The notes: a model not told the origin generated them from the letters alone. Positions 6,930 through 41,225 are shown, counted from the first letter of the stretch. The stretch: 41,225 bases of DNA from an uncultured Clostridia bacterium (GCA_964614865.1 CAZTNO010000002.1:1-41225); one strand, 5' to 3'. Numbers and translations: made by a program.

Positions 6930-6959
6930 GCCGGATTCCGGGTCGATTTTCGCCCGTTT

Positions 6960-7457: not shown

Positions 7458-7505
7458 GGCCACCTCCGGGGGTCGGACCCCTAAAAGGGACCCGAAGCAA
7501 CCCGC

Positions 7506-7535
7506 ATCATACCGGAAATCGCTTGCCATTGCCAA
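7506..7535 (-). promoter_or_regulatory. possible promoter TTGGCA-N18-TATGAT for the exported-protein gene
   Basis: On the minus strand, ttggca (7535..7530) and tatgat (7511..7506), about 50 nt upstream of ATG 7457. Confidence 0.3.
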
Positions 7536-7636
7536 GCACCCTCCGCGAGCCGATCCTCCTCCAGGTCATCCATCTGCTACTTTTCCCTTTTCCCTTGCGG
7601 GTGAGGACGATGCCGAACAGGATCAGGGATTCAGCT

Positions 7637-9971: not shown

Positions 9972-10047
9972 CGGCAGGGGTGATACGGAACCGGGGGGAA
10001 ATGAGTTCCGCACTCTCCAGGCCAAGCCCGCGCCGGGCCGCGTCAGA

Positions 10048-10076
10048 TTGACATTTCCGGGGGGGTGCGGTAAAAT
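10048..10076 (+). promoter_or_regulatory. promoter TTGACA-N17-TAAAAT upstream of grpE-dnaK-dnaJ
   Basis: ttgaca at 10048..10053, taaaat at 10071..10076, about 60 nt before ATG 10139. Confidence 0.5.
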
Positions 10077-10138
10077 TTTCACCCTGCCAAACAGAAATTA
10101 GACGGCCCTTTCGCGGCCGCCAGGTGGAGGTATGCACC

Positions 10139-10744
10139 ATGGGATCAGGCGACAACGGGCCGGATATCGGGTACGTTCCCGACGATCCGGACGACGAGGT
10201 TCAAGAGCCCCGCAAGGCCTCCCCCCCCCCGACCGAGCCCCCCGAGCCTCCGGGTGGCACCCCTTCCACCGCCGGCCTGGTGGCCGAGCGGGACGAGTAC
10301 AAAGACAAGTACCTGCGCACCTTGGCCGAGATGGACAACTTCCGCAAGCGCATGAAAAAAGAGAAGGACGACTACCAGAAGTACGTCTTTGCCGACTTCC
10401 TGCTCGAACTGCTGCCCATCCTCGACAACCTGGAGCGTGCGCTGAAGAGCAGTGGCGCCGGGGAGACCCGGGGCCTGGCCGACGGCGTGGACATCATCCG
10501 CCGGCAATTCACCGACCATCTCAAGAAGTACCGGGTGGTGGAGATCGAAGCCCTCGGCAAAGAGTTCGACCCCACATTCCATCAGGCCCTGGCCCGCGAG
10601 GAATCCGGCGAAGTCGAGGTGCCCACCGTGTCCGAGGTCTACCAGAAGGGATACCTGTACCACGACCGCCTGTTGCGCCCCGCCCTGACCAAGGTCATCG
10701 TCCCCGCCGAGCGCGACACCGTGGTCGAGCGGGACGACGAATAA
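10139..10744 (+). CDS. grpE: nucleotide exchange factor GrpE
   Basis: KDKYLRTLAEMDNFRKRMKKEKDD...FDPTFHQAL...GYLYHDRLLRPALTKV is the typical GrpE core. A GGAGG SD lies 8 nt before ATG 10139. The N-terminal extension is Pro-rich. Confidence 0.9.
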   Translation: MGSGDNGPDIGYVPDDPDDEVQEPRKASPPPTEPPEPPGGTPSTAGLVAERDEYKDKYLRTLAEMDNFRKRMKKEKDDYQKYVFADFLLELLPILDNLERALKSSGAGETRGLADGVDIIRRQFTDHLKKYRVVEIEALGKEFDPTFHQALAREESGEVEVPTVSEVYQKGYLYHDRLLRPALTKVIVPAERDTVVERDDE

Positions 10745-10745
10745 C

Positions 10746-12560: not shown

Positions 12561-12566
12561 CCCGCC

Positions 12567-13679
12567 ATGAAGAAACGAGATTACTACGAAATACTGGGCG
12601 TCGGCAAAGACGCCGGCGCCGACGAAATCAAGAAGGCTTACCGGCAGCTGGCTTTGCAGTACCACCCCGACCACAACCAGGGCGACGACCAGAGCGAGGA
12701 GAAGTTCAAGGAAGCCTCGGAGGCCTACTCGGTGCTGGGCAACCCCGACAAACGCAAGATCTACGACCAGTACGGCCACGAGGGGCTGCGCGGCAACGGC
12801 GGCGGCCCCGGCGACTTCGGCTTCTCCGACTCCATTTTCGCCGATTTCGGCGACATCCTGGGCGACCTGTTCGGTTTCGGCAGCTTCTTCTCCGGCTCCC
12901 GAGGCGGCCGCGCGCAGCGCAAAGGGCGGGACATGGGGATCGAGATCTCGCTGACCATCGAGGAAGCCTACCGCGGGGTCAGCCGGGAAGTGGCGGTGGA
13001 ACGCGAAAAGGGTTGTGCCGATTGTTCCGGCTCGGGCTCCGAAGCCGGTCATGCGCCCGAAACCTGCCGGGCCTGCGGCGGTGCCGGCCAGGTCCGCCGA
13101 TCCCAGGGTTTTTTCTCGATCGCCACCCCTTGCAGCCGGTGCGGCGGATCGGGCCAGACCATCACCCACCCTTGCAAGAAGTGCCGAGGGTCGGGGCGCA
13201 TCGTCGAAGAAAAGAAACTCTCGGTCACCTTCCCCCCCGGAATCGACAGCGGCAACCGGATGCGGGTGGTCGGCGAAGGGGAGGACGGCCACCAGGGAGG
13301 GCGCCCCGGCGACCTCTACCTGATGGTGCGGGTCGAGGACGACGGAAAGCACCAGCGACAGGGCAACGACCTGCTGCTGACCGTCCCCGTTTCCTTCGCC
13401 CAGGCAGCCCTGGGTGACGAAATCCCCCTCGTCACCTTCGCCGATGCCGAGCAGGTGAAGATCCCCGCCGGCACCCAGAGTGGTCAGATCATCCGCCTCA
13501 AGGGAAAGGGGTTCCGCGAGGTCAACCGCTCGGGACGGGGTGACCTGCTGATCATCGCCCAGGTACGCACCCCGACCAAACTCACCTCCCGCGAGGAGGC
13601 CCTGTTGCGGGAGTTGCGCGACCTCGAGAAGGGACGCGATGCGGCCCCGGGCGAACGCAAGAAGAGGCTGTTCCACTGA
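12567..13679 (+). CDS. dnaJ: co-chaperone DnaJ
   Basis: J domain DYYEILGV...YHPDHN, a Gly/Phe-rich linker, and four CxxCxGxG zinc-finger motifs ([32 protein letters not shown]). Confidence 0.95.
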
Positions 13680-14380
13680 TGCACCTGCGTCGGTTTTTCG
13701 TTCCGGGCCCAATCGAAGCGACCCCCCGGCCTATCGAGGGCGGCGAGTTTCACCACCTCAAGACAGTGCTACGCGCCCGCCTTGGCGAGGAGATCGAGCT
13801 GGTCGACGGCCAGGGGCGGCTGGGTACCGGCCGGATCCTGCGCATGGAGAGCCGGCGCGCCCTGGTCGGGATCGAGCGGGTCGAAACGGTTCCTCCGCCT
13901 CCCCCGGGGGTGGTGGTCGCCTGCCCGCCCCTGAAACACCACGCCATGAACTGGATGGTGGAAAAACTCTGCGAACTGGGGGTCGACGAGATCCGCCCCA
14001 CCCGCTTCGAGCGGACCGATGGCACCACCGCCCTCGATGCCGGAGAGCGCTGGCAAGGGCTCGCCCAACAGGCCCTGAAGGTGAACCGGCGGCTGTGGCA
14101 GACCCGGATTGCCCCGCTGTCCCCGCTGGATGACGTGCTGACGGCAGCGCCGGCGTTTGCCGCCCGCATCGCCGGCGACCTGGCGGGCGCTCCATGGCCG
14201 CAACACCCCCTGCCCCGCCCCACCCTGCTGCTGATCGGCCCGCCGGGAGATTTCACCGCCGGGGAGTGGCAGCGCATCGCCGCCGCCGGTTTTTCCCGCC
14301 ACCACATCGGCACCTGCCTGCTCAAAAGCGAAACCGCGGCCATCGCCGCCGCCGCCCTGCTGGTCTCATGCTCGAACTGA
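13679..14380 (+). CDS. rsmE: 16S rRNA (uracil1498-N3)-methyltransferase RsmE
   Basis: MHLRRFFV...HHLKTVLRARLGEEIELVDGQG...LLIGPPGDFT...LLKSETAAI matches the RsmE pattern. Its start shares the A of the dnaJ TGA (TGATG). Confidence 0.8.
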   Translation: MHLRRFFVPGPIEATPRPIEGGEFHHLKTVLRARLGEEIELVDGQGRLGTGRILRMESRRALVGIERVETVPPPPPGVVVACPPLKHHAMNWMVEKLCELGVDEIRPTRFERTDGTTALDAGERWQGLAQQALKVNRRLWQTRIAPLSPLDDVLTAAPAFAARIAGDLAGAPWPQHPLPRPTLLLIGPPGDFTAGEWQRIAAAGFSRHHIGTCLLKSETAAIAAAALLVSCSN

Positions 14381-17410: not shown

Positions 17411-18032
17411 TCCGGTCCGTCACGAAGTGCTGGCGGTCGGTGCGCTCCAGACCAACTGCTACCTGGTCTGGGGAGAGGGACGCAGCGATTGCCTGGTGAT
17501 CGATCCCGGCGCCGAGGGAGAGCGGATCGTCACCCGCCTGCGCGGGCTGGGCCTCACCCCCGCGGCCATCGTGCTGACCCACGGACACTGGGACCATTCG
17601 GGCGGGGAGTTGCCCCTGCGGAAGGCGTTTTCCGTTCCCCTCTACCTGCACCCGGCCGACCAGCCGGTCCTGTCCTCGGCAATCAATCGCAGCATGGCGG
17701 GCGATTTTGGCGTGGAGCCCCCCACCACCACCGATCACCCCCTGACCGACGAAAAAGAAACAACGCTGGCCGGTTTGGTTGTCGAGGTGCTGGCCACCCC
17801 CGGCCACACCCCGGGCTCGGTGGCCCTGCGGATCGGCGACCGGTTGTACTCGGGAGACACCCTGTTCGCCGGTTCGGTCGGGCGAACCGACCTGCCCGGA
17901 GGCGACTTTCGCCGCTTGCAGGACTCGCTGGCACGACTGTGCCTCCTCCCCCCCACGACCCGGGTCTTCCCCGGCCACGGAGAGTCGACCACCCTGGCGG
18001 TCGAGATCGCCACCAACCCCTACCTGCCATGA
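17400..18032 (+). CDS. MBL-fold metallo-hydrolase (glyoxalase II-like)
   Basis: VLTHGHWDHSGG (HxHxDH), TPGHTPGS, GDTLFAGSVGRTDLPGG, PGHG. It overlaps the apgM end by 11 nt. Confidence 0.85.
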   Translation: MAPDPVRHEVLAVGALQTNCYLVWGEGRSDCLVIDPGAEGERIVTRLRGLGLTPAAIVLTHGHWDHSGGELPLRKAFSVPLYLHPADQPVLSSAINRSMAGDFGVEPPTTTDHPLTDEKETTLAGLVVEVLATPGHTPGSVALRIGDRLYSGDTLFAGSVGRTDLPGGDFRRLQDSLARLCLLPPTTRVFPGHGESTTLAVEIATNPYLP

Positions 18033-18943
18033 GCGGGGACGCCCAGGACCCCTGGCCAGGACGCTTTCTGGCCCACCTGGAGATCGAACGCGGACTGGCC
18101 AAAAACACCCTGCTCTCGTACCGGCGCGAGTTGGAGAAGTACGCCCTCTTCCTGCGCGAGCGAGGCCTGGACGCCCAAGCCGCCGAGAGCCCGCTGATCC
18201 TGGAGTTTCTGGCCCGCCAAAGCCAGGGAGGGCTGTCCTCTGCCTCGCAGGCGCACCTGCTGTCGGTGCTCCGTTCGTTTTACCGTTTTCTCACCCGCGA
18301 GGAGGTCCTCGCCTCTTCGCCGATGACCGGCATCGACTTCCCCAAGAAATGGCAGCGCCTCCCCCACTACCTCAACGAGGAAGAGGTCGACGCCCTGCTG
18401 GCCGCCCCGAACGCTACCGACCCCGCGGGGCTGCGGGACCGCGCCCTGCTGGAACTGTTGTACAGCACGGGCATGCGCATCTCGGAAATCGCCGACCTGA
18501 CGCTGGACCGCCTCTACCTCAGCGAGCGGTTCGTGCGGGTGTTTGGCAAGGGGAGCAAGGAGCGCATCGTGCCCTTCGGCGAACGGGCGGCCACCTCCCT
18601 CTCCGATTACCTGGAGCGGGGGCGGATCGCCCTGCTGGACAAGCGGCACAGCGAAGCCGTGTTCGTCTCCCGCCGCGGCGGGCCGTTCACCCGCCAGGGG
18701 CTGTGGAAGATCATCACCGCCTTCGGCCGGCAGGTGGGCGTGGGCGACCGCCTGACCCCCCACGTGCTGCGCCACTCGTTCGCCACCCACCTGCTCGAAC
18801 GGGGGGCCGACCTGCGCTCGATCCAGCTGATGCTGGGTCATGCCAGCATCACCACCACCGAAATCTACACCCACCTGGCCCGCGACCAGATCCGCTCGGT
18901 TTACGACCAGGCCCACCCCCGTAGCCGCAAGGGGAGCAAGTAG
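18029..18943 (+). CDS. xerD: tyrosine site-specific recombinase XerD (XerC/XerD family)
   Basis: FLAHLEIERGLAKNTLLSYRREL, LYSTGMRISE, VFGKGSKERIVP, HVLRHSFATHLLERGADLRSIQLMLGHASITTTEIYTH. The ATG overlaps the MBL stop (ATGA). Confidence 0.85.
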   Translation: MSGDAQDPWPGRFLAHLEIERGLAKNTLLSYRRELEKYALFLRERGLDAQAAESPLILEFLARQSQGGLSSASQAHLLSVLRSFYRFLTREEVLASSPMTGIDFPKKWQRLPHYLNEEEVDALLAAPNATDPAGLRDRALLELLYSTGMRISEIADLTLDRLYLSERFVRVFGKGSKERIVPFGERAATSLSDYLERGRIALLDKRHSEAVFVSRRGGPFTRQGLWKIITAFGRQVGVGDRLTPHVLRHSFATHLLERGADLRSIQLMLGHASITTTEIYTHLARDQIRSVYDQAHPRSRKGSK

Positions 18944-30690: not shown

Positions 30691-31701
30691 CTAGGCGAAC
30701 TGGGGGTGGCGACTGGCGGCCAGCCGCACCAGACGGCTGCCTAGTTCGCCGTAGGAGAGGCCGATCTGCTCTGCCGCACAAGCGGTGCTGGCGTCGGAGC
30801 TGATATCGGGGTTGGGGTTGATGTCCAGGATGTAGAACACCCCATCGCGCAAGCGGATGTCCAGCCGGGCATAATCGCGGCAACCGAACAGGCGGTAGCA
30901 CCGGAGGCAGCACCGTTTCAGCTCCCGCCGCTGGGCGGGGGTCAAGACGGCAGGGATGATCGTCGAAATGATCTCGTACTGCTTGGACCCGGGGCAAAAC
31001 TTGGCCTCGTAGGTGCAGAGGCGGTCATGGATGTCCACACAGCGCGAAAAGTCCATCTCGGCCGGAGGCAACATCCACGGCGAACGGTTGCCGATCAGTG
31101 AGACGTGGAATTCCCGGCCGTCGATGAAGTCCTCCACGATAACCGGCTCGTTGAAGCAACGCAGGACGTGCTCGATCTGCCGTTCCAGTTCGTGGCGGTT
31201 GAGGACGATCGACTCGGAAGTGATCCCCAGGCTGCAGTGCTCGAAGGCGGGCTTCACGATCGCCGGAAAACGATGCCAATCCCCGGCCCAGGGCCGCTCA
31301 TAGATCGCCCAGGCGGGGGTGGGCAAGCCGTGGGCATCGAGGGTCTCTTTCACCAGGCGCTTGTTTTCGCAACTGCTGAGGGTGTCGGGGTGGGCGCCGG
31401 TGTAGGTCATGTTGCGCTTCTCGAGCACCATGGCCGCCTCGGCTTCACTGTGGGGGAAACCGGGGATCTCCTCGCACAGGTTCATGACAATCCAGTTCTC
31501 GGCGGGAAAATCTGCGAGACGCTCGAGCAGAGTGCTCCCGGCAATCTCCAGCAGGGTGACCGGATGGCCCAGTTGCTCCAGCGAAGAGCGCAGCAACTCG
31601 ATTTCCCTGGCCTGGACCGCTCGCTCCTCGACCGCCCAGGAATGGTCGAGGTTGTACAGCAGGAGGACAGGCAACTCGGCCGCGCTGCGCCACGAAACCA
31701 T
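30691..31701 (-). CDS. ATP-grasp enzyme of the D-Ala-D-Ala-ligase-like family
   Basis: VLLLYNL...GHPVTLL...NLCEE...MTYTGAH...ENKRLVKETLDAHGLPTPAW...PAIVKPAFEHCSLGI...FIDGREFHVSLIG...RLDIRLRDGVFYILDINPNP. Start at ATG 31701. Confidence 0.7.
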   Translation of the reverse strand: MVSWRSAAELPVLLLYNLDHSWAVEERAVQAREIELLRSSLEQLGHPVTLLEIAGSTLLERLADFPAENWIVMNLCEEIPGFPHSEAEAAMVLEKRNMTYTGAHPDTLSSCENKRLVKETLDAHGLPTPAWAIYERPWAGDWHRFPAIVKPAFEHCSLGITSESIVLNRHELERQIEHVLRCFNEPVIVEDFIDGREFHVSLIGNRSPWMLPPAEMDFSRCVDIHDRLCTYEAKFCPGSKQYEIISTIIPAVLTPAQRRELKRCCLRCYRLFGCRDYARLDIRLRDGVFYILDINPNPDISSDASTACAAEQIGLSYGELGSRLVRLAASRHPQFA

Positions 31702-31780
31702 GTTCAGCTCCGCAAAGCGCAACCCCACCAAGGAGCTGGAAAAAAAACCGAGTCCACAGTTGGTTGGATCATATTGGCCT

Positions 31781-31809
31781 GTTTTAAGGTCTATTGGCCG
31801 AAATGTCAA
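31781..31809 (-). promoter_or_regulatory. promoter TTGACA-N17-TAAAAC for the ATP-grasp gene
   Basis: On the minus strand, ttgaca (31809..31804) and taaaac (31786..31781). It is flanked by a TATTGGCC direct repeat at 31772..31779 and 31792..31799. Confidence 0.4.
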
Positions 31810-31908
31810 CCCTGCCCGCACTCTGTTATGCGGCCAGCGGCAGTTTCCGGTCGCCAGGGGGTCGCTTCGACTCTTCCGCCAGGGGAAAGGGGCCCGCGGG
31901 CGGACGAA

Positions 31909-32847
31909 TCAAATCAGCCCTTTGTCTTCGAGTTGGGCGATTTCCGTTTTCAGGTCCACCCCCAACTTTTCCAGGGCAGCAGGCGAAACCCCCAGAGCAC
32001 TCAGCCCATCCAGCAACGAATGATTGCTGGCGCCGCGGAGGGCTCCGTGCTCGAATCCGTTTTCGCGGCAGTAGTCGTTGGCGACAAACAGGACCAGCGC
32101 CGAGCGAACGTTTGGCCCGGTGCCGGCGAAGGGATCCCGCATGTAGCGGAGGCAGTCGACCACCTCGCGGGGCAACCCCCATCGCCGAATGATTTCCAGA
32201 AGCACCTCGCCGTGGTCGAAACCGAGCATTTCCCGCTCCACCTCGATCAACGGGCAATTCTCGGCAAACGAGGTCCGCAGGGCCCGCAGGAACGGGTCAT
32301 GGCGGAATTGATCGACGATCACCAGCCCCAGGTCGTGCAGCAGCCCGCAGGCATAGGCGGTCTCGCCGGAAAGGGCGAACTCGCGCCGGTGGACGAAGCG
32401 GGCCAGCACCGCGGTGGCCACACTGTGCCTCCACAACCGGGCCCGCGCGTAGGTCTCGACGGTGTCCCCGTGGGCGAACAGGTCGCACACTTTCTGGCTC
32501 AACACCAGGCGCAAGGCCGCCTCGAAGCCGATCAGGATGATGGCATCCTCGATGGTGCTGTAGGAACGGCCGCGGGAGTAGAATGCCGAGTTGGCCAAAT
32601 GAAGAATGCGGGCCGCCAGCGGGGGGTCGATCTCGATGATCTGTTTCAGCTCCCGCACCGACGCCCCGGGGCCGGTCAGCACCCCGATCACCTCGGACAC
32701 CACCCGGCCGATCGAAGAGAGTTGGCCGCCTTCGAGCTCGGTCAGCAACCCCGCCAGGCCGTCCCCTTGCGATTGCTTTTCCGTTTTTCCCCCCCGGTTT
32801 CGTCGCACGCCCCGCAATGGTGTACCAAAACCGGAAAAATAAATCAA
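31909..32847 (-). CDS. HDOD-domain signalling protein
   Basis: ELKQIIEIDPPLAARILHLANSAFY...IEDAIILIGF...HSVATAVLARF...ACGLLHDLG is the HDOD pattern. The TTG start at 32847 is uncertain. Confidence 0.7.
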   Translation of the reverse strand: MIYFSGFGTPLRGVRRNRGGKTEKQSQGDGLAGLLTELEGGQLSSIGRVVSEVIGVLTGPGASVRELKQIIEIDPPLAARILHLANSAFYSRGRSYSTIEDAIILIGFEAALRLVLSQKVCDLFAHGDTVETYARARLWRHSVATAVLARFVHRREFALSGETAYACGLLHDLGLVIVDQFRHDPFLRALRTSFAENCPLIEVEREMLGFDHGEVLLEIIRRWGLPREVVDCLRYMRDPFAGTGPNVRSALVLFVANDYCRENGFEHGALRGASNHSLLDGLSALGVSPAALEKLGVDLKTEIAQLEDKGLI

Positions 32848-32889
32848 CCAAGGCCCGGCCGCCTCCAGTTTTTCGGGAGGGTCCGGGGG

Positions 32890-33174
32890 TCAGCTCGCCG
32901 TGACCCGGATCAGGCCGTCTTCAGAAAGGCGACCGAGAAAGGCGAGCACATCGACGTCGATCTGATCCCGCCCTCCGGCATACTCGGTCTCCAGCTGGGC
33001 GCAGAGATCGGCCACCGGCAAAGGGGTTGCCAGCAGCTCCCAGATGCGCCGGCCGATGTCGTCCAGGGTGAGGTAGTTGTTGCCCGCCATGTTGAGGATC
33101 ACCAGCTCGTCGTCCACCGGCGTCGTCGCCGCCTCGCCGTTTCGCACCACGATCGCCGTCATGTCCAGGGCCAT
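32890..33174 (-). CDS. PqqD-family protein (RiPP recognition element; lasso B1-like)
   Basis: 94 aa: ...VDDELVILNMAGNNYLTLDDIGRRIWELLATPLPVADLCAQLETEY...DVLAFLGRLSEDGLI is the typical PqqD/RRE pattern. An AAGGAG SD precedes ATG 33174. Confidence 0.8.
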   Translation of the reverse strand: MALDMTAIVVRNGEAATTPVDDELVILNMAGNNYLTLDDIGRRIWELLATPLPVADLCAQLETEYAGGRDQIDVDVLAFLGRLSEDGLIRVTAS

Positions 33175-33202
33175 GGGCACTCCTTGCTTGGAATGGGGTA
33201 GT

Positions 33203-34063
33203 TTACACGGGCTCGCCCTGTTCGTCCAGATACCCGAAGCGGCGCATCGTCTCCCCGTGGGCGGCAATCAGCCGCTTCGACAAAACGGGGCTCAACTCTT
33301 GCCGCCACCCCCCGGCAACGCCGCGGCGAAAGAACGCGGTCGACTTGCCGGGTTTCTCGGGAAATCCCACCTCGGACTCCTGGCGTCGCAGTTCAGCGAA
33401 ACTAGAAAACGTTACCGCTTTCTCCAGGTTGGTTTTGTTCCAGGGCAGACCGAGAAAACGGACCACCTCGCCGAACACCTTCGGCGTATCACCGAGAAGA
33501 TCCTCGTAGCGCACCGTCAGGCAGGGCAAGCCGGAACGGTCCAGCCAGGAGCGAACATGCCCGCTCCAGTCCCCGGTGAATTGCCGCAACTGGTCGGCCA
33601 ATTCACCCACCGAGCGACCCAGGGCGAACCGGGCATCGCAGAGTTGGGCTACTGCCCGCTCGAGGTCGATGGCGTAGTGGTTTGCCAGCGAAGCGGCCAG
33701 GTCGAGCGGGTTGCGCACGATGTAAACCACCCCGCGGGTGACATCGCCCGGAAAGAGGGGATCGCCCGCCGGGGTTTGTTTCCAGGCATCGTGGGTCTTC
33801 ATGTAGATCGGTTGGGGCTCCTCTGCCGCCATCCGGCGATACACCTCGGGCCGCAAGCACTCGATGGTCTCGTCGTCCAACGTGGAGGCCTCGACTCCCA
33901 CCCATTCGTCGAACCAGATGCGGGCACTGGCCACCGGACCGCCTTCCAGCCGCCGGTCGATGGCCGCAGGAGCGTCTTGATCGCGCAGGTAATTGGTCAA
34001 CAGGATGCGTACCCAGGTGTTGCCCGACTTCGGGTAAGAGGCGAGCCAGTGAATCTTACCCAT
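33203..34063 (-). CDS. PAPS-dependent sulfotransferase-family protein
   Basis: WLASYPKSGNTWVRILL is the 5-prime-PSB motif (PKSGxTW). VVYIVRNPLDLAASL is the 3-prime-PB motif (RNPxD). The ATG overlaps the upstream stop region by 8 nt. Confidence 0.8.
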   Translation of the reverse strand: MGKIHWLASYPKSGNTWVRILLTNYLRDQDAPAAIDRRLEGGPVASARIWFDEWVGVEASTLDDETIECLRPEVYRRMAAEEPQPIYMKTHDAWKQTPAGDPLFPGDVTRGVVYIVRNPLDLAASLANHYAIDLERAVAQLCDARFALGRSVGELADQLRQFTGDWSGHVRSWLDRSGLPCLTVRYEDLLGDTPKVFGEVVRFLGLPWNKTNLEKAVTFSSFAELRRQESEVGFPEKPGKSTAFFRRGVAGGWRQELSPVLSKRLIAAHGETMRRFGYLDEQGEPV

Positions 34064-34949
34064 GGAGGATGCGCCCGGCGACCTCGTCGAGGCTCCAGGA
34101 CGACCGCGGGCGCTGCAGCCGGAACACCTGGAGTTGCTGGCTGAGGGCGGCAAACAGCAAAAACCGTTCCGGGTGTTCGCCGGGGTGCATGGGGCCGTAG
34201 ACACAGGATTGCAGGGCGGCGAATTTCTCGCCGCCGGTGAGGGGGATCAAGACCACCTGGTCGGTGGGTGCTGGTTCCAACAGAAAGAGGCGATGGAGGG
34301 GGACCGGTTTTTCGGCCATCGCCCCGCGATGGGGGGCCACAACCTTGATTTTGCGGAGCGGGTTGCGGGGCAAGGAGTTTACGTCCTGCCCCAGGGCCGT
34401 GGCTGCGTCTTGGCACAGGTTCAACTTGGCCATGCCAGGCAAGGCCTCGACCCGCTCATCGGCTCCCCGCTGGACGACGGTGACGTCATCGCTCACCATC
34501 GTCCCGCCGCGAGAAAGCAAAACCCCCTGGGTGGTACTCTTGCCCGCCCCGGAGGCTCCGGCCAGAACCACCCCCCGATCCGCCACCGCCACCGTGGAAG
34601 CGTGCAGCACCACCTGTCCCAACGAACGCATCAGGGCCGCGAGGACATGGGAGAGAAAGTGCGCCGCCAGCAGGTCATCCTCTCCGTCGGGGTTCCGCTC
34701 CAGGATCACCCGCCCCCCCGATTCCACCAGGAAACGCCCTGCCCGTCGCCCCCCCTTCAACAGGTAGCTGCCGGGAGCAGCCTGCCAGTTTTCGCCTTGA
34801 CTGGTCGGATTTGCCAGCGATCGGGGTACCGCCCCCTCGGCGACCATGAGATCGGGGGTTCCCGTCCAAGAGAGCTCGGCCAATTGGCCGCAACGGAACG
34901 GGAGCGACACCTTGTGACCGTACAGGGAATAGAGATGACGCTCGCTCAT
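34056..34949 (-). CDS. HPr-kinase/phosphorylase C-terminal-domain-like kinase, copy 2
   Basis: VLHASTVAVADRGVVLAGASGAGKSTT...GGTMVSDDVTVV shows a P-loop plus xxDD as in the HprK catalytic domain. The ATG at 34949 overlaps the upstream TGA (ATGA). Confidence 0.75.
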   Translation of the reverse strand: MSERHLYSLYGHKVSLPFRCGQLAELSWTGTPDLMVAEGAVPRSLANPTSQGENWQAAPGSYLLKGGRRAGRFLVESGGRVILERNPDGEDDLLAAHFLSHVLAALMRSLGQVVLHASTVAVADRGVVLAGASGAGKSTTQGVLLSRGGTMVSDDVTVVQRGADERVEALPGMAKLNLCQDAATALGQDVNSLPRNPLRKIKVVAPHRGAMAEKPVPLHRLFLLEPAPTDQVVLIPLTGGEKFAALQSCVYGPMHPGEHPERFLLFAALSQQLQVFRLQRPRSSWSLDEVAGRILHG

Positions 34950-35782
34950 CGCACCCCCGCCGCCACCATGTCTGCCAACTCGCCGGCCCGCCACACCCCG
35001 CGCGGCCTTTTCAACTGGAAAAAGCGCGCACTGCCGGCCAGGGCGGATAATCCCCCCAGGCAGGCCCCCCGGTCGAGCAGCACGTCGGCGATATGGCTGT
35101 TGAAGAGAAGCCTCCCGAGGCCGCGAAAGCGCGCCGCGCCCCGGGGTTCGTGGCATACGATCGGGTCGGAACTGTACACCGAGAGGGCGAAGACCGCCCG
35201 CACCGGGATCGGCTCGGGGTTGGCCACCTCGGTAAAAACCACGTGGTGCCGGTGGTCGAAAAAGGGGGGGGGCGGTTGACTGGATAGACCCAGATTTTCC
35301 AGAGAGCCCGTCCACAACACCGCCTCGGGAACCCCGGGAGCCACCCGAGCCCTTCCCCGGGTGTCGCGGGTCACCAGAGCCAAATCGTCCCCCAGCAACG
35401 TTGCCCCGCGCCGGGTCAGCTCCACCGCCAGCGACGACTTGCCACACCCCGAATCTCCGGCCAGCAGCACCGCATCGCCGTCGATCTTCACCGTTGCCGC
35501 ATGCAGCGCCAGCCAACCGCGCTGGCAAGCCAGCGCCGCCAGTGGTGCCAAACCCAGAAAGTAGCCGATGCGCTCGTCAGTGGCTCCTGGCGAGGGATCG
35601 ATCGTCACGAGTTCCCCCCCCTCGACCAGAAAGCGGGCAACGCCCGGCACCTGGAGCAGGAAGCTGCGATGCGATGCCTGCCAGAGGACGCCGCCAGCCT
35701 CGGCAGCCTCGAGCACCCTGGGCACCGCGGCCTGGCGGACCGGGATATCGCCAAAAGGGGGGGGGAGGGCAAGAGGGTTCAT
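34946..35782 (-). CDS. HPr-kinase/phosphorylase C-terminal-domain-like kinase, copy 1
   Basis: LHAATVKIDGDAVLLAGDSGCGKSSLAVEL...GATLLGDDLALV. The ATG at 35782 overlaps the stop of the Asn-synthetase homolog (ATGA). Confidence 0.75.
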   Translation of the reverse strand: MNPLALPPPFGDIPVRQAAVPRVLEAAEAGGVLWQASHRSFLLQVPGVARFLVEGGELVTIDPSPGATDERIGYFLGLAPLAALACQRGWLALHAATVKIDGDAVLLAGDSGCGKSSLAVELTRRGATLLGDDLALVTRDTRGRARVAPGVPEAVLWTGSLENLGLSSQPPPPFFDHRHHVVFTEVANPEPIPVRAVFALSVYSSDPIVCHEPRGAARFRGLGRLLFNSHIADVLLDRGACLGGLSALAGSARFFQLKRPRGVWRAGELADMVAAGVR

Positions 35783-37647
35783 GGCGGGGCCAGACGATGA
35801 TCCTCGGGCCAGCGGGCAAAGAACTGGTTGACGAACAGCCCGGCCATGATGCCCCGGGTCAGCACGCAGATCGCATCGTGAAACACCCCTGGAGAATCGC
35901 CGGCCCGCATCGCCGCCCAAACCTTCCCCAGCTGGGCGGCATCGACGTACTCTGAGGCCGGGCCGCGGGCAATCTCGGCGAGAGCCTCCTCCACCTCGGC
36001 GGCGCATGCCCGCAGCCGGGGAACCAGGTCGCCCGCCTGTCGCCCGCGCCGCAGGTTCAAACGAACCTCGTCGGGGAGCCGCCCCTTCATCGCGGCGCGG
36101 ATCAGCCAGCGGTCGAGACCGGTCTGCGGGTCGAGAAACACCCAGTCGGGGACCGACAGGCAGAACTGGAGGACCCGGGGATCGCCGGTCGGGTCGCGGT
36201 ACTCGAGGCCCCCGGCATGCTGCTTGGCGGCGTACAGGGCCCCGATCATGGAACGCCCCGGCTTGAGGATGCGCAGACGGGTTTGCCCCGGCACGGCGGA
36301 AAAGACCTCATCCGGATCCTCCATGCGTCGTTGTGCCAGCCGCAACCTGCGGGCGAAGTCGGGGTGGATGGCACTGCCCCGCAAGCCGTCCCGGGAACTC
36401 CGGCGCAGCCGGTGCCAGCGCGACAGCAAACCGACGGGCACCGCCCGTTTCACCCGTTCCCGGGCCCACTTCCGCCAACCGAGGCCCTGGATCTGGGCAA
36501 ACCACGAATGACTGAAGGGATCGCCGGTCCACGAGATGCCGGCATTGCCGAGCTGTCCGGTCAAGAGAACACCCGCCCCGGCCGCCCGGGCGCTCTCGTC
36601 CAAGGCCAGAATCCAGTACAAATTCCCCGCCGCGTGCCCCGGCTCGCCGGTGATGGCGAGCATGCGGCGGATGGCGGCGATGGGGGTGATCTGAGTTGCC
36701 GCCACCGGGAAATGGTCGATGTTGCCGGCCAGGCGGGCGGTTGCCGCGGCCAGGGGGTATTCGTCGCCAAAACGGCGGCCCACGTATCCCCGGGTTTCGT
36801 ACTGGGGCACCGAGGTGAAGGCGGGCAGGCGCCGCCCCTCCTCCCGCAACCACAGGGCCGCAGTCGCGGCCACCGATCCCGAATCGAGGCCACCGGAGAG
36901 CATGGCCGCCACCCCGCTTCCCCCTGCCCCGCGAGGCGGACGCAACCGGGCCCGCACCGCCTCGTCGAACACCGCCAAAAAAGGCTCGACGTAGTCTTCC
37001 CGGCGGGGTAGCCGCAACAGCGGGGTCTCTTCCAGCCGCCAGTAGCATCGCGGTTCGAGTCGATCCGCGGTCACCCGTAGGCAGTGGGCCGGGGGGAGAC
37101 GACAAAGCGGCGAGGTGATGGTCCGCTCGCCATGGTAATTGGGCCAGGAGGTCAGCACTTGGGCCAGGTAGAGCTCGTCAAGCTTCAGCGGGGAGAGGTT
37201 CAGGGTCAGCAGGGATTTGGCCGAACTGGCAAAAGCGAACCCCCGTTCGCAGGCCAGATAGTGGATAGCGGTATTGCCGAAGTGGTCGCGGGCCAGGAAC
37301 AGTTGCCGCTCCCGGGGATGCCAGGCGGCAAAAGCCCAGTCGCCGTAAACGCGCCCCGGGCACTCTTCGCCCCAGCGAAGGTACGCCATGCGGAGCAAGG
37401 CGCCGTCGGTCAGCGAGAGGCATTCGCCAGCGGAAAGGCCCAGGGCGTGGGCCAGTTCCTCGCGGTTGTCGACCCGGCCCTCGGCCAGAAACACGAAACC
37501 GTCGCCAGCCAGCCCTGCCACCCGGGGCGACCCGGCAAAACAACCCTTGGCCCACAGGGCGCTCCCGTCCGCGCACAAACCCGCCAGCGCGGCCAAGATC
37601 TCTGTGCTTACGGGTGTTCCGTCACGCTGGAAAAAACCGAACAACAA
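35779..37647 (-). CDS. asparagine-synthetase-homologous lasso-peptide cyclase-like protein
   Basis: MLSGGLDSGSVAA is the PP-loop. The Asn-synthase-like N-domain (LFLARDHFGNTAIHY) lacks an N-terminal Cys nucleophile. About 620 aa, directly downstream of a 49-codon ORF. Start uncertain: TTG 37647 or 37644 behind a GGAAAGGAGA SD; the track start is TTG 37671. Confidence 0.8.
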   Translation of the reverse strand: MLFGFFQRDGTPVSTEILAALAGLCADGSALWAKGCFAGSPRVAGLAGDGFVFLAEGRVDNREELAHALGLSAGECLSLTDGALLRMAYLRWGEECPGRVYGDWAFAAWHPRERQLFLARDHFGNTAIHYLACERGFAFASSAKSLLTLNLSPLKLDELYLAQVLTSWPNYHGERTITSPLCRLPPAHCLRVTADRLEPRCYWRLEETPLLRLPRREDYVEPFLAVFDEAVRARLRPPRGAGGSGVAAMLSGGLDSGSVAATAALWLREEGRRLPAFTSVPQYETRGYVGRRFGDEYPLAAATARLAGNIDHFPVAATQITPIAAIRRMLAITGEPGHAAGNLYWILALDESARAAGAGVLLTGQLGNAGISWTGDPFSHSWFAQIQGLGWRKWARERVKRAVPVGLLSRWHRLRRSSRDGLRGSAIHPDFARRLRLAQRRMEDPDEVFSAVPGQTRLRILKPGRSMIGALYAAKQHAGGLEYRDPTGDPRVLQFCLSVPDWVFLDPQTGLDRWLIRAAMKGRLPDEVRLNLRRGRQAGDLVPRLRACAAEVEEALAEIARGPASEYVDAAQLGKVWAAMRAGDSPGVFHDAICVLTRGIMAGLFVNQFFARWPEDHRLAPP

Positions 37648-37732
37648 GGATCTCCTTTCCTGCCCCGGCAAAAAGAACTATTCAGAGACCGACGGGGGCA
37701 CCCGCCCGAAGATCCCCGGTCATCTGAAAGCA

Positions 37733-37790
37733 TTTCGCGCGCGAAAACCCGCTTCGCGAATCAGAAAGCGAAACACGCGGCCCTGGCCGC
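37733..37790 (-). terminator. candidate partial terminator / attenuator hairpins between the precursor gene and the cyclase gene
   Basis: Minus-strand RNA has GCGGC-CAGG-GCCGC (37790..37777) followed by GUGUUUCGCUUUCUGAUU. A second imperfect hairpin spans 37749..37780. A 14-nt palindrome tttcgcgcgcgaaa lies at 37733..37746. Confidence 0.3.
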
Positions 37791-37806
37791 TTGGAGAGGG
37801 TTGGCC

Positions 37807-37956
37807 TCAGGTGGGGGAATGGAAACTGCCGGATGACCCGTCTGTGACAGATCCACCCATAAACAGCGTCCGCTTCAATTCGACGGTGCCGATCTCGGGA
37901 GCGTGCCAGGCGGGGCGGAGATCGGTTTCAAAAAGTGGGGTCGTTTGCGGTTCCAT
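37807..37956 (-). CDS. candidate lasso-type RiPP precursor peptide (49 aa)
   Basis: My own translation: MEPQTTPLFETDLRPAWHAPEIGTVELKRTLFMGGSVTDGSSGSFHSPT. An AGGAGGA SD lies 4 nt before the ATG, with a TTGACT-17-TATATT promoter upstream. The leader-like WxxPxI...Tx motif is followed by a core with Asp at position 8 and a Ser/Thr-rich tail. Confidence 0.65.
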   Translation of the reverse strand: MEPQTTPLFETDLRPAWHAPEIGTVELKRTLFMGGSVTDGSSGSFHSPT

Positions 37957-37987
37957 ACGTCCTCCTGAGGTCAAGGGGCTTTTGCCC

Positions 37988-38016
37988 AATATAGCAAAAC
38001 CTCCCGGGAAAGTCAA
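37988..38016 (-). promoter_or_regulatory. promoter TTGACT-N17-TATATT immediately upstream of the precursor-peptide ORF
   Basis: On the minus strand, ttgact (38016..38011) and tatatt (37993..37988), about 30 nt before ATG 37956, in an AT-rich 225-nt gap. Confidence 0.55.
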
Positions 38017-38181
38017 AAAAAGTGCGATGCACATTGGCATTGGATCGAGGCTTCAGGTTCGGAACTGCACCAAGGGCGATCGAGGTGTCCCTTATTATAT
38101 TTGCCCTGGCCCTCTCGCCAGAGGGGGCATGTCAGCCGGCAATCGGGGCAAACGATTCGCCGATGTCGCCGCAATCCATGA

Positions 38182-39405
38182 TCACTTCAGCATCCAGTCC
38201 ATCAGGGCCGCGGCCTGGCCTGGCCTGGAAGTGCGGCGGGCCTTACCCGCCAGCATCGACTTCAACCCGGCGACGTTGCGAGCGAGGATTCGCCAGCCAT
38301 ACTGCGGATAATACCACCAGATTCGCAGGGAATCTGCCGCCACCGGAAAGAGTGCCGCGACCATTTGCCGCGAGGGAAAAAAGCGGCTCCGGAGCAGGGC
38401 GAATCGATCACGCCACCCCTTCCGGCCGAAGAAGAGGACCAGGTTGGGGTTGGGCCCCCCGTTTCGCTGGCCTCGCCAGTTCAGCAGCACGGTTTCTCGG
38501 GCTTCCTGGGCCAGCGCTTCGGGCATCCCCCGGGGGAGCAATCCGGCGATGGCGGCATCGGGCACCGCAGCCTGGAGCAGATCCCGAGCCAGCAAAAGGG
38601 GGACCCCGACCGAACGCGCCACCCCCATTTTCTCTGCCCGCTCGACCAGACGCGCCCAGTCCGGAGAAACCCGGGCGATGAATGTGGCAATGTCGCAGAG
38701 CGGCCGCAGCCCGAACTCGAAGCGGTGGATGGTGGCGTGGGCTCCGAGATGGATCAACTGGTCTTCGGGGGCGAACACCCTCACCTCGGTGCCGGCAATC
38801 GTGGCGGGCACGGCGTCTGCCATCATCCCCCGGCGGTCGAGCTGGAAAGGATAGTCGGGGGGGAGCAACTCCCAGTGGACTTCCAGCAGGGTGTGGCTGG
38901 AAGGTTCCAGATAATGGAACTCGTTCAACTCGGCGGGGGGGGTGCTCCCGAACTCCCGGCGCTGGAAACCTTTCTCTGTAAGGATCGCGTCGGCTTGTTC
39001 CAGGTGCTCGCGGGCGACCAGGATGTCGATGTCGCCCATCACCCGCAGGGCGATGCTCGAATAGACCGCGGTGGCCAGATAGGCCCCCTTGAGCACGATC
39101 ACCGGCACGCCGGCCCGGGAGAGGCCCTCCAGCACCGGAGCCAGGGCATAAAAACGCCGCAGGTTGATGGCGGCATTGCGCCGGTGCTCCTGTCGCAATC
39201 GCGCGCCAAGCCCGGCCGGGATCCCGGACGGGGCGGGACCGAGGCCGATCCGGTGGTGAAGGAGGGGGATCACCCGGTGTTTGCTCGCCTCGGCAGCGAC
39301 CGCCGCCCACTCTTCCGCAGTCCAGGCGGGGGACGATCCACTTTCGATCTCGCTACGGGCGGAAAAACCAAGCAAGCCAAGCAAGCGTTCCTGAGCGACA
39401 GTCAT
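38182..39405 (-). CDS. uncharacterised nucleotidyltransferase-family protein (NTP_transf_5-like)
   Basis: About 407 aa. ...VIVLKGAYLATAVYSSIALRVMGDIDILV...LEVHWEL... looks like a nucleotidyltransferase-fold G-x-x-D-x-D motif as in the family often found beside lasso/PqqD genes (from memory). The ATG overlaps the ABC stop (ATGA). Confidence 0.6.
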   Translation of the reverse strand: MTVAQERLLGLLGFSARSEIESGSSPAWTAEEWAAVAAEASKHRVIPLLHHRIGLGPAPSGIPAGLGARLRQEHRRNAAINLRRFYALAPVLEGLSRAGVPVIVLKGAYLATAVYSSIALRVMGDIDILVAREHLEQADAILTEKGFQRREFGSTPPAELNEFHYLEPSSHTLLEVHWELLPPDYPFQLDRRGMMADAVPATIAGTEVRVFAPEDQLIHLGAHATIHRFEFGLRPLCDIATFIARVSPDWARLVERAEKMGVARSVGVPLLLARDLLQAAVPDAAIAGLLPRGMPEALAQEARETVLLNWRGQRNGGPNPNLVLFFGRKGWRDRFALLRSRFFPSRQMVAALFPVAADSLRIWWYYPQYGWRILARNVAGLKSMLAGKARRTSRPGQAAALMDWMLK

Positions 39406-41225
39406 TGCGCTTTTCCTGGCAACGTCACCTCCTCCGCCAAACCCTCCCGGTGTTGCGTCCGGATCAACCGGCTGTAGGGGCCATTGTTGCCGAGCAATTG
39501 GTCATGGGTCCCGACTTCCGCCACCCGACCTGCTTCCAGCACCACGATCTGATCGGCGTCCCGGATCACCGACAACCGGTGGGCGATGATCAGGCGGGTT
39601 TTTGGTTTTCCGCATTCCGCCAGCACCTGGTGAACCGCCTGCTCGGTGGGTCCATCCAGTTCGCTGGTGGCCTCGTCGAGGATCAGCAACTCTGCCCGCT
39701 CGATCAGCAGGGCCCGAGCCAAGGCGACCCTTTGCCGCTGCCCCCCCGAAAGGCGCATTCCCCGTTCCTCGAGCACGGTATCGTAGCCCAGGGGCAGGGA
39801 GTGGATGAAGTCGTGGATCTGGGCTTTCCGGCAGGCCGTTTCGATTTCCCGATCGGTCGCTTCGGGGCGGGCGAAGCGCAAGTTTTCCCGGACGCTGGCG
39901 TGAAACAGGAACACGTCCTGGCTGACCACGGCCACTTTTCGACGCCAGGTGCCGATGTCCAGCCGGCGCAGGTCGACCCCGTCGACCACCACCTCCCCCT
40001 CGGTCGGTTCGTACAGCCGGGTCAGCAGGTTGACCAGACTCGACTTGCCGGCGCCCGAAGCACCGACGACGGCCGTGGTTTTCCCGACGGGGATGGTCAG
40101 GTTAATTCCCCGCAGCGCCGGGGGATCGTTTGCCGTATAGCGGAAGGAAACATTGCGCCACTCGATCGCCTGGCAAAGGTGCCCGAAGGGGATTTCCCCC
40201 TCCGGGTGGCCCCGGGCTGCGCCCATGGCGATGAACGCCTCGATCTCTTCGAGCAGGGGGCCGACCTGCAGCAATTGGGCGTGAAGGGTGGCCAGGCCAT
40301 TCACCGGGGCCACCATGCGGAAAGCGATCACCAGGAACAGCACGAGCGAAGAGACGGTCGCCCGTGAATTTCCGAACAGGAGGAAAGACCCCGCCACCAT
40401 CAGGAAGGCCAGCGAAGCCGTGATCAACAGGGTGAAAGCCGGACGGGAGCGGCTGGCCATCCGGTCGGAGCGAAAGCCGGCTTCGTGCATCGACTTCAGG
40501 GCGTCGCGGGTTCTGGCCAGACTCCACTCGCTCTGGTCGAAGAGGTGGATGAGCTTCATGGCCGCCATGTCTTCCTGAAGCATGGACAGGAAAGCCTTGG
40601 ACAAATCGACGGTGCGCCGCCCCGCCGCCCGCAACCGGGCTCCCAAAAGGGGGCGAAGAACAAGGGCGATCGGTGCCAGCACCAGCACGGAGACGAGGGT
40701 GAGCGGCCACGAAAGCCACACCGCCAGCGACAGGCAAGCGGCGAGGATCACCAGGTGGGCGATGCCCTGGCTGGCCGTAAGCACCAGCCGCCCCACCTGA
40801 AAACTGTGGGCCCCGACCACCATCAACATTCCTCCCGCCCGCTCCTGCTGCAACACCTGGATGGGCAGCCGATGCAACGCCGCCAGCAGGCGCAGCTGCA
40901 CCTCTTGCTCGACCGTCCGGCGTAGCATCAGGCTCTGGATGCTTTGCAGGTACTGCAACGAACTGCTGGCCAGGGTGACCAGCAGCAGTGCCAGCGCCGC
41001 CCAGCGGATGCGCGCCGGCAAGGCCAGAGCTCCGATCTCCCGGGCCCATCCCCCCACCCAGGGGATATTGTGACCCAGCTCGCCTTTCCCCCCCCCTTCC
41101 AGAAAGAGCAGGATCCCGCCGGACCGGAACAGTCCCAGCACCTGGGAGGAATCCCGCACCACGAAGACCAGCGGCAGGAGCAGCAGGCAGGCCCACAGAA
41201 CGGGCTTCAGGTCCTTGAAAGCGCC
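39402..41225 (-). CDS. ABC exporter, fused permease + ATPase (McjD-like position); 5-prime end beyond window
   Basis: GASGAGKSS (Walker A), LSGGQRQRVALARAL (signature), LLILDEATSELD (Walker B), preceded by about 6 TM helices. The reading frame stays open to the window end (...GAFKDLKPVLWACLLLLPLVFV...), so the GTG at 41162 is probably internal. Confidence 0.85.
   Translation of the reverse strand, partial: GAFKDLKPVLWACLLLLPLVFVVRDSSQVLGLFRSGGILLFLEGGGKGELGHNIPWVGGWAREIGALALPARIRWAALALLLVTLASSSLQYLQSIQSLMLRRTVEQEVQLRLLAALHRLPIQVLQQERAGGMLMVVGAHSFQVGRLVLTASQGIAHLVILAACLSLAVWLSWPLTLVSVLVLAPIALVLRPLLGARLRAAGRRTVDLSKAFLSMLQEDMAAMKLIHLFDQSEWSLARTRDALKSMHEAGFRSDRMASRSRPAFTLLITASLAFLMVAGSFLLFGNSRATVSSLVLFLVIAFRMVAPVNGLATLHAQLLQVGPLLEEIEAFIAMGAARGHPEGEIPFGHLCQAIEWRNVSFRYTANDPPALRGINLTIPVGKTTAVVGASGAGKSSLVNLLTRLYEPTEGEVVVDGVDLRRLDIGTWRRKVAVVSQDVFLFHASVRENLRFARPEATDREIETACRKAQIHDFIHSLPLGYDTVLEERGMRLSGGQRQRVALARALLIERAELLILDEATSELDGPTEQAVHQVLAECGKPKTRLIIAHRLSVIRDADQIVVLEAGRVAEVGTHDQLLGNNGPYSRLIRTQHREGLAEEVTLPGKAQ

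Follow-up and report, generated by a model that had tools for sequence, protein, structure and literature searches.

A probable paeninodin-like lasso-peptide cluster with two HprK-like kinases and a sulfotransferase on a contig of an Aminicenantes-like bacterium

Does the block of minus-strand genes at one end of contig CAZTNO010000002.1 (GCA_964614865.1) specify a lasso peptide, and what would its tailoring enzymes add to it? The window analysed here is this entire contig of 41,225 nt, and the cluster occupies positions 32,890-41,225 of its minus strand. An initial annotation had described eight genes there as a lasso-type cluster for a peptide made by ribosomes and modified after translation (RiPP), with two HprK-like kinases, a sulfotransferase dependent on 3'-phosphoadenosine-5'-phosphosulfate (PAPS) and an NTP_transf_5 protein. 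Pfam and NCBIfam profile hidden Markov models (HMMs), run on all eight genes, returned the same families at nearly the same coordinates, and the core call was correct. The locus is probably a paeninodin-like (split-B, class II) lasso-peptide cluster on a contig of an Aminicenantes-like uncultured bacterium, for which a tailoring route can be proposed. Overall the initial interpretation is partly supported: it was right on the type of cluster, wrong on its completeness, and it overstated the novelty.

The precursor peptide carries lasso-diagnostic residues

The precursor gene (A; 37807-37956, minus strand) has 49 codons, with an AGGAGG sequence 5 nt ahead of its ATG. It encodes a 49-aa peptide divided into a 31-aa leader, MEPQ...KRTL, and an 18-aa core, FMGGSVTDGSSGSFHSPT. 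The core is predicted to form an 8-residue ring between Phe1 and Asp8, followed by a 10-residue tail with the end ...HSPT; the unmodified, cyclised lasso would have a monoisotopic mass of 1738.726 Da. A 77-codon version of this small open reading frame (ORF) was rejected: the -10 element of the promoter falls within it, and the ATG that has the ribosome-binding site ahead of it is the internal one.

Homologs were gathered by a cyclase-based scan with one genome per species, which gave 14 loci, and more loci were added by exact-protein look-ups. Upstream of orthologous cyclases, more than 25 small ORFs of the same precursor family were found, up to five per locus. The sole invariant residues in an alignment of 20 peptides were W17, P20, T30 and D39 (window numbering), which become W(-15), P(-12), T(-2) and core D8 when Thr30 is set at -2; G35 (core G4) was conserved in 90% of the aligned precursors. 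The determinants reported for lasso precursors are Thr(-2) and an Asp or Glu at core position 8-9 (PMC4289311). The RiPP recognition elements (RREs) of lasso pathways bind [W/Y]xxPx[L/V/I]; in paeninodin-like precursors the Trp is reported to vary hardly at all, and W-15 is the residue by which PbaA is bound to its RRE (PMC13381572). The leader of the window peptide carries the WxxP motif of paeninodin-like clusters as W17-H-A-P20-E-I. The invariant residues are those that the RRE binds, that direct cleavage of the leader and that close the ring. The 49-codon ORF, which had been proposed as a small precursor, is a genuine lasso precursor, having 20 homologs in which all four positions are invariant; its conservation next to orthologous clusters, named at the outset as a check, was found together with these diagnostic residues.

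The family consensus core, xxxGSxxDGxxGSx(x), is short, rich in Gly, Ser and Thr, and free of Tyr. Ser or Thr is common at core position 13, and the C-terminal residues include T, S, I, L, A, F, K, G, H, V and P. The window core ends in Thr and does not have the C-terminal Ser acceptor of kinase-tailored lasso clusters.

The cyclase and the leader-binding protein

The cyclase gene (C; 35779-37644, minus strand) encodes a 621-aa asparagine synthetase homolog with Asn_synthase and GATase_7 domains; the start chosen agrees with the recorded protein P0001. Its best model was the lasso-cyclase model NF033535 (1.2e-74, 252 bits; curated cutoff 525 bits), ahead of the generic asparagine synthase model (111 bits, likewise below its curated cutoff) and of the XrtA/PEP-CTERM amidotransferase model TIGR03108 (81 bits, 7.6e-23; cutoff 816.9), to which only residues 62-272 align. 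Since all of these scores lie below the curated cutoffs they give a ranking and not a formal assignment. The ranking, 252 bits for the lasso model against 81 for that of exopolysaccharide-associated amidotransferases, bears out the original description of the protein as lasso-cyclase-like. The N-terminus, LFGFF, lacks the glutaminase Cys, and the SGGLDSG PP-loop is kept.

B1 (32890-33174, minus strand; 94 aa) is an RRE of the PqqD family and the predicted leader binder. It scored 60.5 bits on the Pfam PqqD model (2e-16; cutoff 23.4 bits), and its best NCBIfam model was lasso_PqqD_Bac (3.7e-14, 52.6 bits, below the cutoff of 80 bits). The protein is full length by comparison with its orthologs and shares 57% identity with the B1 of the closest related locus (L015).

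Two kinase lineages and a Teg12-like sulfotransferase

Both P-loop proteins that had been called HPr-kinase-like matched Hpr_kinase_C: K1 (34946-35782, minus strand; 278 aa) at 3e-09 and K2 (34056-34949, minus strand; 297 aa) at 2.9e-08. They are distinct paralogs with 30% identity, and sequence comparison indicates two separate orthologous lineages, each protein best matching its own counterpart in every related locus. The K1 motif, H...GDSGCGKS...GDD, is conserved in the K1 orthologs of seven loci, some of which have Asp-Glu in place of the Asp pair; the K2 motif, H...GASGAGKS...SDD, is conserved in the K2 orthologs. In eight clusters both lineages keep the His, the Walker A sequence GxxGxGK[ST] and an Asp-Asp or Asp-Glu pair. 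His-Lys-Asp-Asp residues have been reported as essential in lasso kinases (PMC9266682), and they are present in K1 and K2 of the window. K1 also aligns with the HprK P-loop region of PDB entry 1jb1. On other kinase models the two proteins scored 31-40 bits (TIGR04352 and TIGR04355, HprK-related kinases A and B; cutoff 200) and 22-35 bits (TIGR04249, SynChlorMet ScmC; cutoff 125), in each case over the P-loop region only.

The third tailoring gene (33203-34063, minus strand) encodes a 286-aa O-sulfotransferase (ST), predicted to be PAPS-dependent as first described, which scored 84.4 bits on Sulfotransfer_1 (1.1e-23; cutoff 22 bits). The nearest solved structures were Teg12 (1e-18), Teg14 and StaL, enzymes that sulfate glycopeptide antibiotics, with E-values from 1e-18 to 6e-10. 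Its YPKSGNTW, KTH and VRNPLD sequences align with the PAPS loop, the catalytic His and the 3'-phosphate motif of Teg12. The motifs listed at first sight, SGGLDSG, PKSGNTW and RNPLD, were all found in the respective proteins.

Sulfation in the family is independently supported by the cluster of Sporomusa silvacetica DSM 10669 (CP155573.1, ~2.640-2.656 Mb; L101), in which genes for PAPS supply, CysD-like and CysN/APS-kinase, lie beside the leader peptidase gene B2 and the ATP-binding cassette (ABC) pump gene. The locus (932-8592) contains B2, the CysD-like PAPS_reduct gene and the CysN/APS-kinase fusion, then ABC, GNAT, DUF6916 and three phage tail-collar (PF07484) genes. GNAT, DUF6916 and three Collar genes are likewise found inside the Geotalea uraniireducens cluster (L016 12211-14652).

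The six genes form an operon

A, C, K1, K2, ST and B1 form one six-gene operon served by one promoter; of its enzyme genes, the first four run into one another, the end of each overlapping the start of the next. The K1 start overlaps the cyclase stop as ATGA, the K2 start overlaps the K1 stop in the same way, and the sulfotransferase start overlaps the end of K2 by 8 nt. B1 comes 26 nt past the sulfotransferase stop, with an AAGGAG ribosome-binding site ahead of its ATG. The long ORFs listed for K1, K2, the sulfotransferase and the PqqD protein overran their true starts; the refined products of 278, 297, 286 and 94 aa are those given above, and the lengths of K1, K2 and the sulfotransferase are identical to those of the closest relative.

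Upstream of the precursor gene, the AT-rich gap noted initially proved to be exactly 225 nt long, with 55% GC compared with 66% in the operon. The near-consensus promoter reported within it was recovered as a sigma-70-like site, TTGACT-17-TATATT with a TG extension (37988-38016, minus strand; 10/12 matches). It was the sole promoter-like site in a motif scan of 31500-41225 (9.7 kb), where 0.9 would be expected by chance, so that its position is what counts. A hairpin with a T-run, resembling a terminator, lies directly 3' of B1 (32836-32865, minus strand); such sites are not enriched, 12 having been found against 8.8 expected in shuffled sequence, and the weight of this one comes from its position only.

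When the 173-nt spacer between precursor and cyclase was folded as RNA in search of an attenuator, it showed no advantage over shuffled sequence (z = 0.45). Neither an Rfam element nor a tRNA was detected in scans of the entire window, and a PADLOC scan of the five enzymes gave no match to a defence system.

Distribution of the cassette

The order A-C-K1-K2-ST-B1 recurs in Chloroflexota (L001), Acidobacteriota (L002, L004 and L007), Desulfuromonadaceae (L003), Fimbriimonadaceae of the Armatimonadota (L014), the closest relative (L015, cyclase 61% identical), Anaerolineales (L102) and two cultured organisms, Geotalea uraniireducens Rf4 (L016/L017) and S. silvacetica (L101). The set of cyclase, two kinases, sulfotransferase and RRE was found in at least seven phyla, and at least 120 database clusters contain the cyclase at 50% identity or more.

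On long contigs, two Solirubrobacterales loci (L006 and L012, ~9500-11900) combine a cyclase with precursor genes of this family, while B1, B2, kinases and sulfotransferases are all absent over 10 kb in both directions; the cyclase match of L012 spans residues 10-409 only. Just upstream of the L015 cassette lies a second lasso-like cluster (1-6093) with a cyclase, a PqqD protein, a 43-aa ORF and three Sulfotransfer_1-type genes, none of its genes being called a kinase.

The host and the history of the site

A dihydroorotase gene near the cluster encodes a protein 90% identical to that of a Candidatus Aminicenantes genome, which marks the host as Aminicenantes-like and not proteobacterial by sequence comparison. 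A contig of this Aminicenantes relative (L018 8468-13018, L021 1-7450) shares pyrB-pyrC with the window at 88% nucleotide identity. It also has, in the same order as the window, an HDOD protein (69% amino-acid identity), an NTP_transf_5 protein (abbreviated NTP5; 56%) and an ABC exporter (58%), arranged as HDOD, NTP5, a second and shorter NTP_transf_5 gene, then ABC, with no lasso operon. HDOD and NTP5 are separated by ~200 nt only. Because the relative has this short spacer and no lasso genes, the 5.3-kb cassette of the window, from promoter to terminator, appears to be an insertion or deletion unit beside a pre-existing ABC-NTP5 pair. A comparison of the intergenic DNA flanking the cassette with the HDOD-NTP5 spacer of the relative, made to find insertion scars, gave only short matches at chance level.

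The neighbouring window genes include an HDOD/HD protein directly downstream of the operon (31909-32847, minus strand), which is syntenic in the relative, and next to it an ATP-grasp protein (30691-31821, minus strand) with a D-Ala-D-Ala-ligase C-terminal domain and ~130 extra N-terminal residues, the gene for which is not. A putatively coding 1005-aa ORF (10695-13712, minus strand) matched PF10712 (NAD-specific glutamate dehydrogenase) at 5e-112, and long ORFs also lie opposite it. A XerC/D-type tyrosine recombinase with Phage_integrase and SAM-like domains (17489-18943, plus strand) and an AAA_14/DUF4143 ATPase (7637-8995, minus strand) are located 14-25 kb from the cluster.

Do the nucleotidyltransferase and the exporter belong to the pathway?

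Immediately upstream of the operon stands a translationally coupled pair of genes. The ABC exporter is MsbA/HepA-like and a candidate for the lasso D-type pump (39402 to beyond 41225, minus strand; ABC_tran 1.4e-33, ABC_membrane 4.8e-16); its best NCBIfam matches, HepA and MsbA, are all below cutoff. Its stop overlaps the ATG of the NTP5 gene, which confirms the ATGA coupling read in the initial annotation. The ORF list gave a complete 586-aa ORF from a GTG at 41162; however, the frame runs on uninterrupted to base 41225, where the contig stops, and as the window is the whole contig the gene must be truncated at its 5' end. The residues that this adds at the N-terminus, LWACLLLLPLVFV, form a hydrophobic stretch that would suit a first transmembrane helix.

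The second gene (38182-39405, minus strand) encodes a 407-aa protein of nucleotidyltransferase fold and PsmN/LppN type (PF14907, 2.4e-56), in which K106, G107, D125 and D127 are invariant across 36 homologs. Its AlphaFold model has a pLDDT of 88.7. The fold search returned weak matches only (1.7e-3 or weaker), to ANT(2'')-Ia, LnuA, MenT toxins and FKRP, and being weak these cannot tell nucleotidyl transfer of the ANT type from phospho-alcohol transfer of the FKRP type. No match was obtained when PDB sequences were searched with the protein. The ANT(2'')-Ia entries among its fold neighbours, 5cfs and 4xje, are also those reported for PsmN (PMC6993621).

PsmN, an NTP transferase of an uncharacterised nucleotidyltransferase family, is required in vivo for the appearance of one or two hexoses on the phosphoserine of pseudomycoidin (PMC6993621), and NTP_transf_5 is likewise listed for the NTP transferases in the related clusters of linear polyphosphorylated peptides (LPP). 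Given PsmN, nucleotidylation is not the best guess: the nucleotidylated product first suggested gives way to a hexose on phosphoserine (PMC6993621). By analogy, addition of hexose to a phosphate would be the better-founded prediction, the chemistry of the family being known in vivo only.

An accessory NTP_transf_5 protein and an MsbA-like exporter are characters of paeninodin-like clusters and both are present here, although their dedication to the pathway is uncertain. The pair could instead stand outside the lasso pathway, as the edge of a glycan or sulfoglycan export locus that continues past the contig end, which would leave tailoring to K1, K2 and ST only. In the Aminicenantes relative the same two genes (NTP5 56%, ABC 58%) follow Sulfotransfer_2, a WbsX glycosyltransferase gene (Glyco_tran_WbsX) and an unannotated gene of ~400-530 aa, all upstream of ABC, with no lasso genes present, which suggests that the pair can belong to a sulfo- or glycan-type locus. 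The pair also forms a separate transcription unit in the window, upstream of the precursor promoter, and the Geotalea, L003 and L014 cassettes have no adjacent NTP5. The NTP5 of the window is 50% identical to the lasso-adjacent homolog of L015 and 56% identical to the homolog of L018, which is not adjacent to lasso genes.

On the other side, the cassette has an NTP5 homolog next to it in L001, L002, L004, L007, L015, L101 and L102, and in eight related loci a homolog comes after B1 or B2 or ahead of A. One homolog, the 575-aa protein P0291 of an Ardenticatenaceae member, 30% identical to the nucleotidyltransferase of the window, is fused to Transglut_core3, the B2 domain. An ABC-NTP5-B2 unit ends a lasso-like cluster of another kind, at L104 (816-11706), which comprises a cyclase, Cupin_2, PqqD, a precursor of 48 aa whose last residue is Ser, two unknown genes and a radical SAM gene before it; ABC and NTP5 share the 4-nt ATGA overlap seen in the window, and the NTP5 is 51% identical to that of the window. 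Paeninodin-like clusters sit within polysaccharide loci (PMC13381572), a setting that fits a dedicated and a non-dedicated pair alike. A pair outside the pathway is thus a real but minority possibility. The initial annotation, which counted both genes in the lasso set, was right as to the families, while their dedication is in doubt because the relative has the pair without the lasso operon.

Proposed pathway and threading of the product

The gene organisation was seen directly, and the following steps are drawn from characterised relatives. B1 would bind the W(-15)xxP(-12)xI motif of the 31-residue leader, and the two HprK-like kinases would phosphorylate Ser/Thr hydroxyls on the still-linear precursor, most likely at core position 13, where Ser is conserved, and perhaps also at Ser5. 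The Teg12/StaL-like sulfotransferase, with PAPS as donor, would place sulfate on a peptide hydroxyl or on an appended sugar or phosphate. The NTP_transf_5 protein may add hexose-type groups to the phosphate, a step that depends on PsmN in pseudomycoidin. A B2 cysteine protease would cleave after Leu(-1), guided by Thr(-2), upon which the cyclase would adenylate Asp8 and join it to the amine of Phe1, so closing a ring of eight residues through which the 10-residue tail is threaded; the ABC pump would export the product.

The role of the K1-K2-sulfotransferase triad is proposed tentatively: it may sulfate a tail Ser/Thr hydroxyl or an attached phosphate or sugar, so that charged groups, and not bulky side chains, lock the thread. 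Alternatively, the product might be branched-cyclic and unthreaded, or threaded only while the tail modifications are present. The tails of the family, 6-8 residues of Gly, Ser and Thr, offer no bulky plug, and unmodified pseudomycoidin is not threaded, its authors having proposed the phospho-hexose as the lock (PMC6993621). Topology is not readable from sequence, however, and the window core has a longer tail, in which Phe14 and His15 could serve as plugs. This leaves an unthreaded product rather unlikely, and a threaded lasso is retained in the proposed pathway.

The B2 leader peptidase is not on the contig

The cluster had been said to carry the full set of genes; instead, the contig has no B2 leader peptidase (Transglut_core3), and it ends before the exporter gene is complete. 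A tblastn search of all six frames of the 41,225 bases with four B2 queries found no B2 (best E 0.22), nor did a profile of 13 B2 sequences with filters off on the same contig (best E 0.25). Only one flank of the cluster was visible to these searches, as the contig ends inside the ABC gene. In related loci that bear the cyclase, the 13-sequence profile found B2 within 10 kb in 14 of 19, usually overlapping the end of B1. B2 must therefore act in trans, or a host protease replaces it, or the pathway is incomplete here.

The last of these would make the locus a decaying or partial copy, in which A-C-K1-K2-ST-B1 was transferred without B2, or B2 was lost, and which would yield no mature lasso and, at best, the linear precursor with phosphate or sulfate on it. 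No B2 occurs anywhere in 41 kb, and the operon stops at the terminator-like site exactly where relatives have B2. The close relative with HDOD beside NTP5, ~200 nt apart, makes the 5.3-kb cassette look like an insertion/deletion unit, and the 3.5 kb upstream of ABC in that relative likewise lack B2. Against decay stand six intact operon genes with products of ortholog length, four enzyme genes overlapping end to start, and a good promoter and ribosome-binding sites, and the cluster is seen on one flank only. Distant or missing B2 genes also have precedents. L102, with no B2 within 9 kb on either side, keeps four precursor genes and the full cassette followed by NTP5; in L101, B2 lies 8 kb upstream; and an extra A-C pair in Geotalea shares a distant B1/B2. 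Pseudomycoidin was formed without B1/B2 in Escherichia coli and Bacillus subtilis (PMC6993621). In view of these four cases the absence of B2 is read as action in trans or substitution and not as proof of a dead cluster, and an incomplete copy appears improbable.

The evidence for a lasso pathway

That the locus is no lasso cluster at all, the asparagine synthetase homolog being an exopolysaccharide/exosortase amidotransferase and the kinases members of Haft's HPr-rel-A or SynChlorMet systems, is effectively refuted: the weak matches that point there, to TIGR03108 (81 bits), TIGR04352, TIGR04355 and TIGR04249, fall far under their cutoffs (816.9, 200, 200 and 125 bits), the score on the lasso-cyclase model is threefold higher, lasso-diagnostic invariants mark the precursor, and B2 peptidases accompany the orthologous cassettes.

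Several observations nevertheless weigh against a functional, tailored lasso pathway. B2 is absent from the contig, while it stands directly after B1 in 12 of 19 related loci. Both the cyclase and the RRE score under the NCBIfam curated cutoffs (252 vs 525 and 52.6 vs 80 bits). The core begins with Phe and not with Gly, Ala, Ser or Cys, position 1 being variable across the family, and it ends in Thr, whereas characterised lasso kinases need Ser. The close relative carries NTP5 and ABC without the lasso operon at the same site. Finally, the modification site, the order of steps and the threaded topology are matters that sequence alone cannot show.

Novelty and meaning of the cassette

The novelty claimed for this combination of enzymes was overstated: the cassette is found widely, cultured strains carry it too, and it had been noticed by 2014 (PMC4289311). 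In that year Letzel et al. reported that some lasso clusters of their survey, which covered that of Geobacter uraniireducens Rf4 (Gura_1351), had genes for an HPr kinase and a sulfotransferase (PMC4289311). As relayed in a passage of a 2021 review, sulfotransferase and nucleotidyltransferase genes flank some lasso clusters, the nucleotidyltransferase being sometimes fused to B2 (PMC8498205). The statement that no product from such a combination has been characterised held for the literature searched, and a full-text search, with most subscription journals outside its reach, found no characterised sulfated lasso peptide. The gene set is known to bioinformatic surveys and chemically uncharacterised, and the window is a further example of it.

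The central question is what the conserved unit of two kinases and a sulfotransferase does to a Tyr-free, Ser-rich lasso tail. Since at least seven phyla share this tailoring cassette as one fixed unit, the cores are Tyr-free and rich in Gly and Ser, and the S. silvacetica cluster contains PAPS-supply genes, sulfation is a concrete, testable prediction. If it is correct, the product would be the first O-sulfated lasso peptide and, to our knowledge, the first bacterial RiPP sulfated elsewhere than on tyrosine. Lasso peptides are prized as very stable scaffolds, and every new tailoring reaction broadens what can be built on them. The cultured carriers are more tractable for experiments than a metagenomic contig.

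Comparison with known systems

Paeninodin (padeCAKB1B2D, Paenibacillus dendritiformis), with the kinases ThcoK and SyanK, resembles the window in its split B1, its cyclase of the asparagine synthetase type, its [W/Y]xxP leader motif with Thr(-2) and its MsbA-like exporter. Paeninodin has one kinase and a C-terminal phosphoserine, whereas the window has two conserved kinase paralogs and a sulfotransferase. Unlike paeninodin, the window has a core that ends in Thr, a predicted 8-residue ring that starts from Phe, no B2 on the contig, and a host of a different phylum.

Pseudomycoidin (psmCAKB1B2ND, Bacillus pseudomycoides) shares with the window a kinase, an uncharacterised nucleotidyltransferase next to an ABC pump, ANT(2'')-Ia fold neighbours and a short tail lacking an obvious plug. 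D125 and D127 of the window NTP_transf_5 protein may tentatively be likened to the catalytic DxD residues D134 and D136 of PsmN, at a comparable position. The pseudomycoidin cluster, unlike the window, has neither a sulfotransferase nor a second kinase, and the chemistry of PsmN has been shown in vivo only.

The LPP clusters (Popov et al. 2026) have an RRE, an HprK-like kinase, NTP_transf_5 and an MsbA-like pump, as the window does; their kinase targets an internal Ser, and they are embedded in glycan loci. They have no cyclase, a SipW-like peptidase and YxxP leaders, whereas a cyclase, a leader of the WxxP form and the ring residue D8 are found in the window.

Teg12, Teg14 and StaL act on peptide natural products, and their PAPS-binding loops and KTH align with the sulfotransferase of the window. 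These enzymes sulfate phenolic hydroxyls, whereas no core of the precursor family has Tyr, which leaves Ser/Thr, a sugar or a phosphate as the acceptor here.

In gene order and precursor family the window matches Geotalea uraniireducens Rf4 (Gura_1351 region; CP000698.1, ~1.594-1.599 Mb), which has the same A-C-K1-K2-ST-B1 arrangement, orthologs 41-55% identical to those of the window, and a paralog, P0005, with 55% identity to the window cyclase. In Geotalea, unlike the window, B2 follows right after B1, a second A-C pair is accompanied by GNAT and tail-collar genes, and no NTP5 is adjacent.

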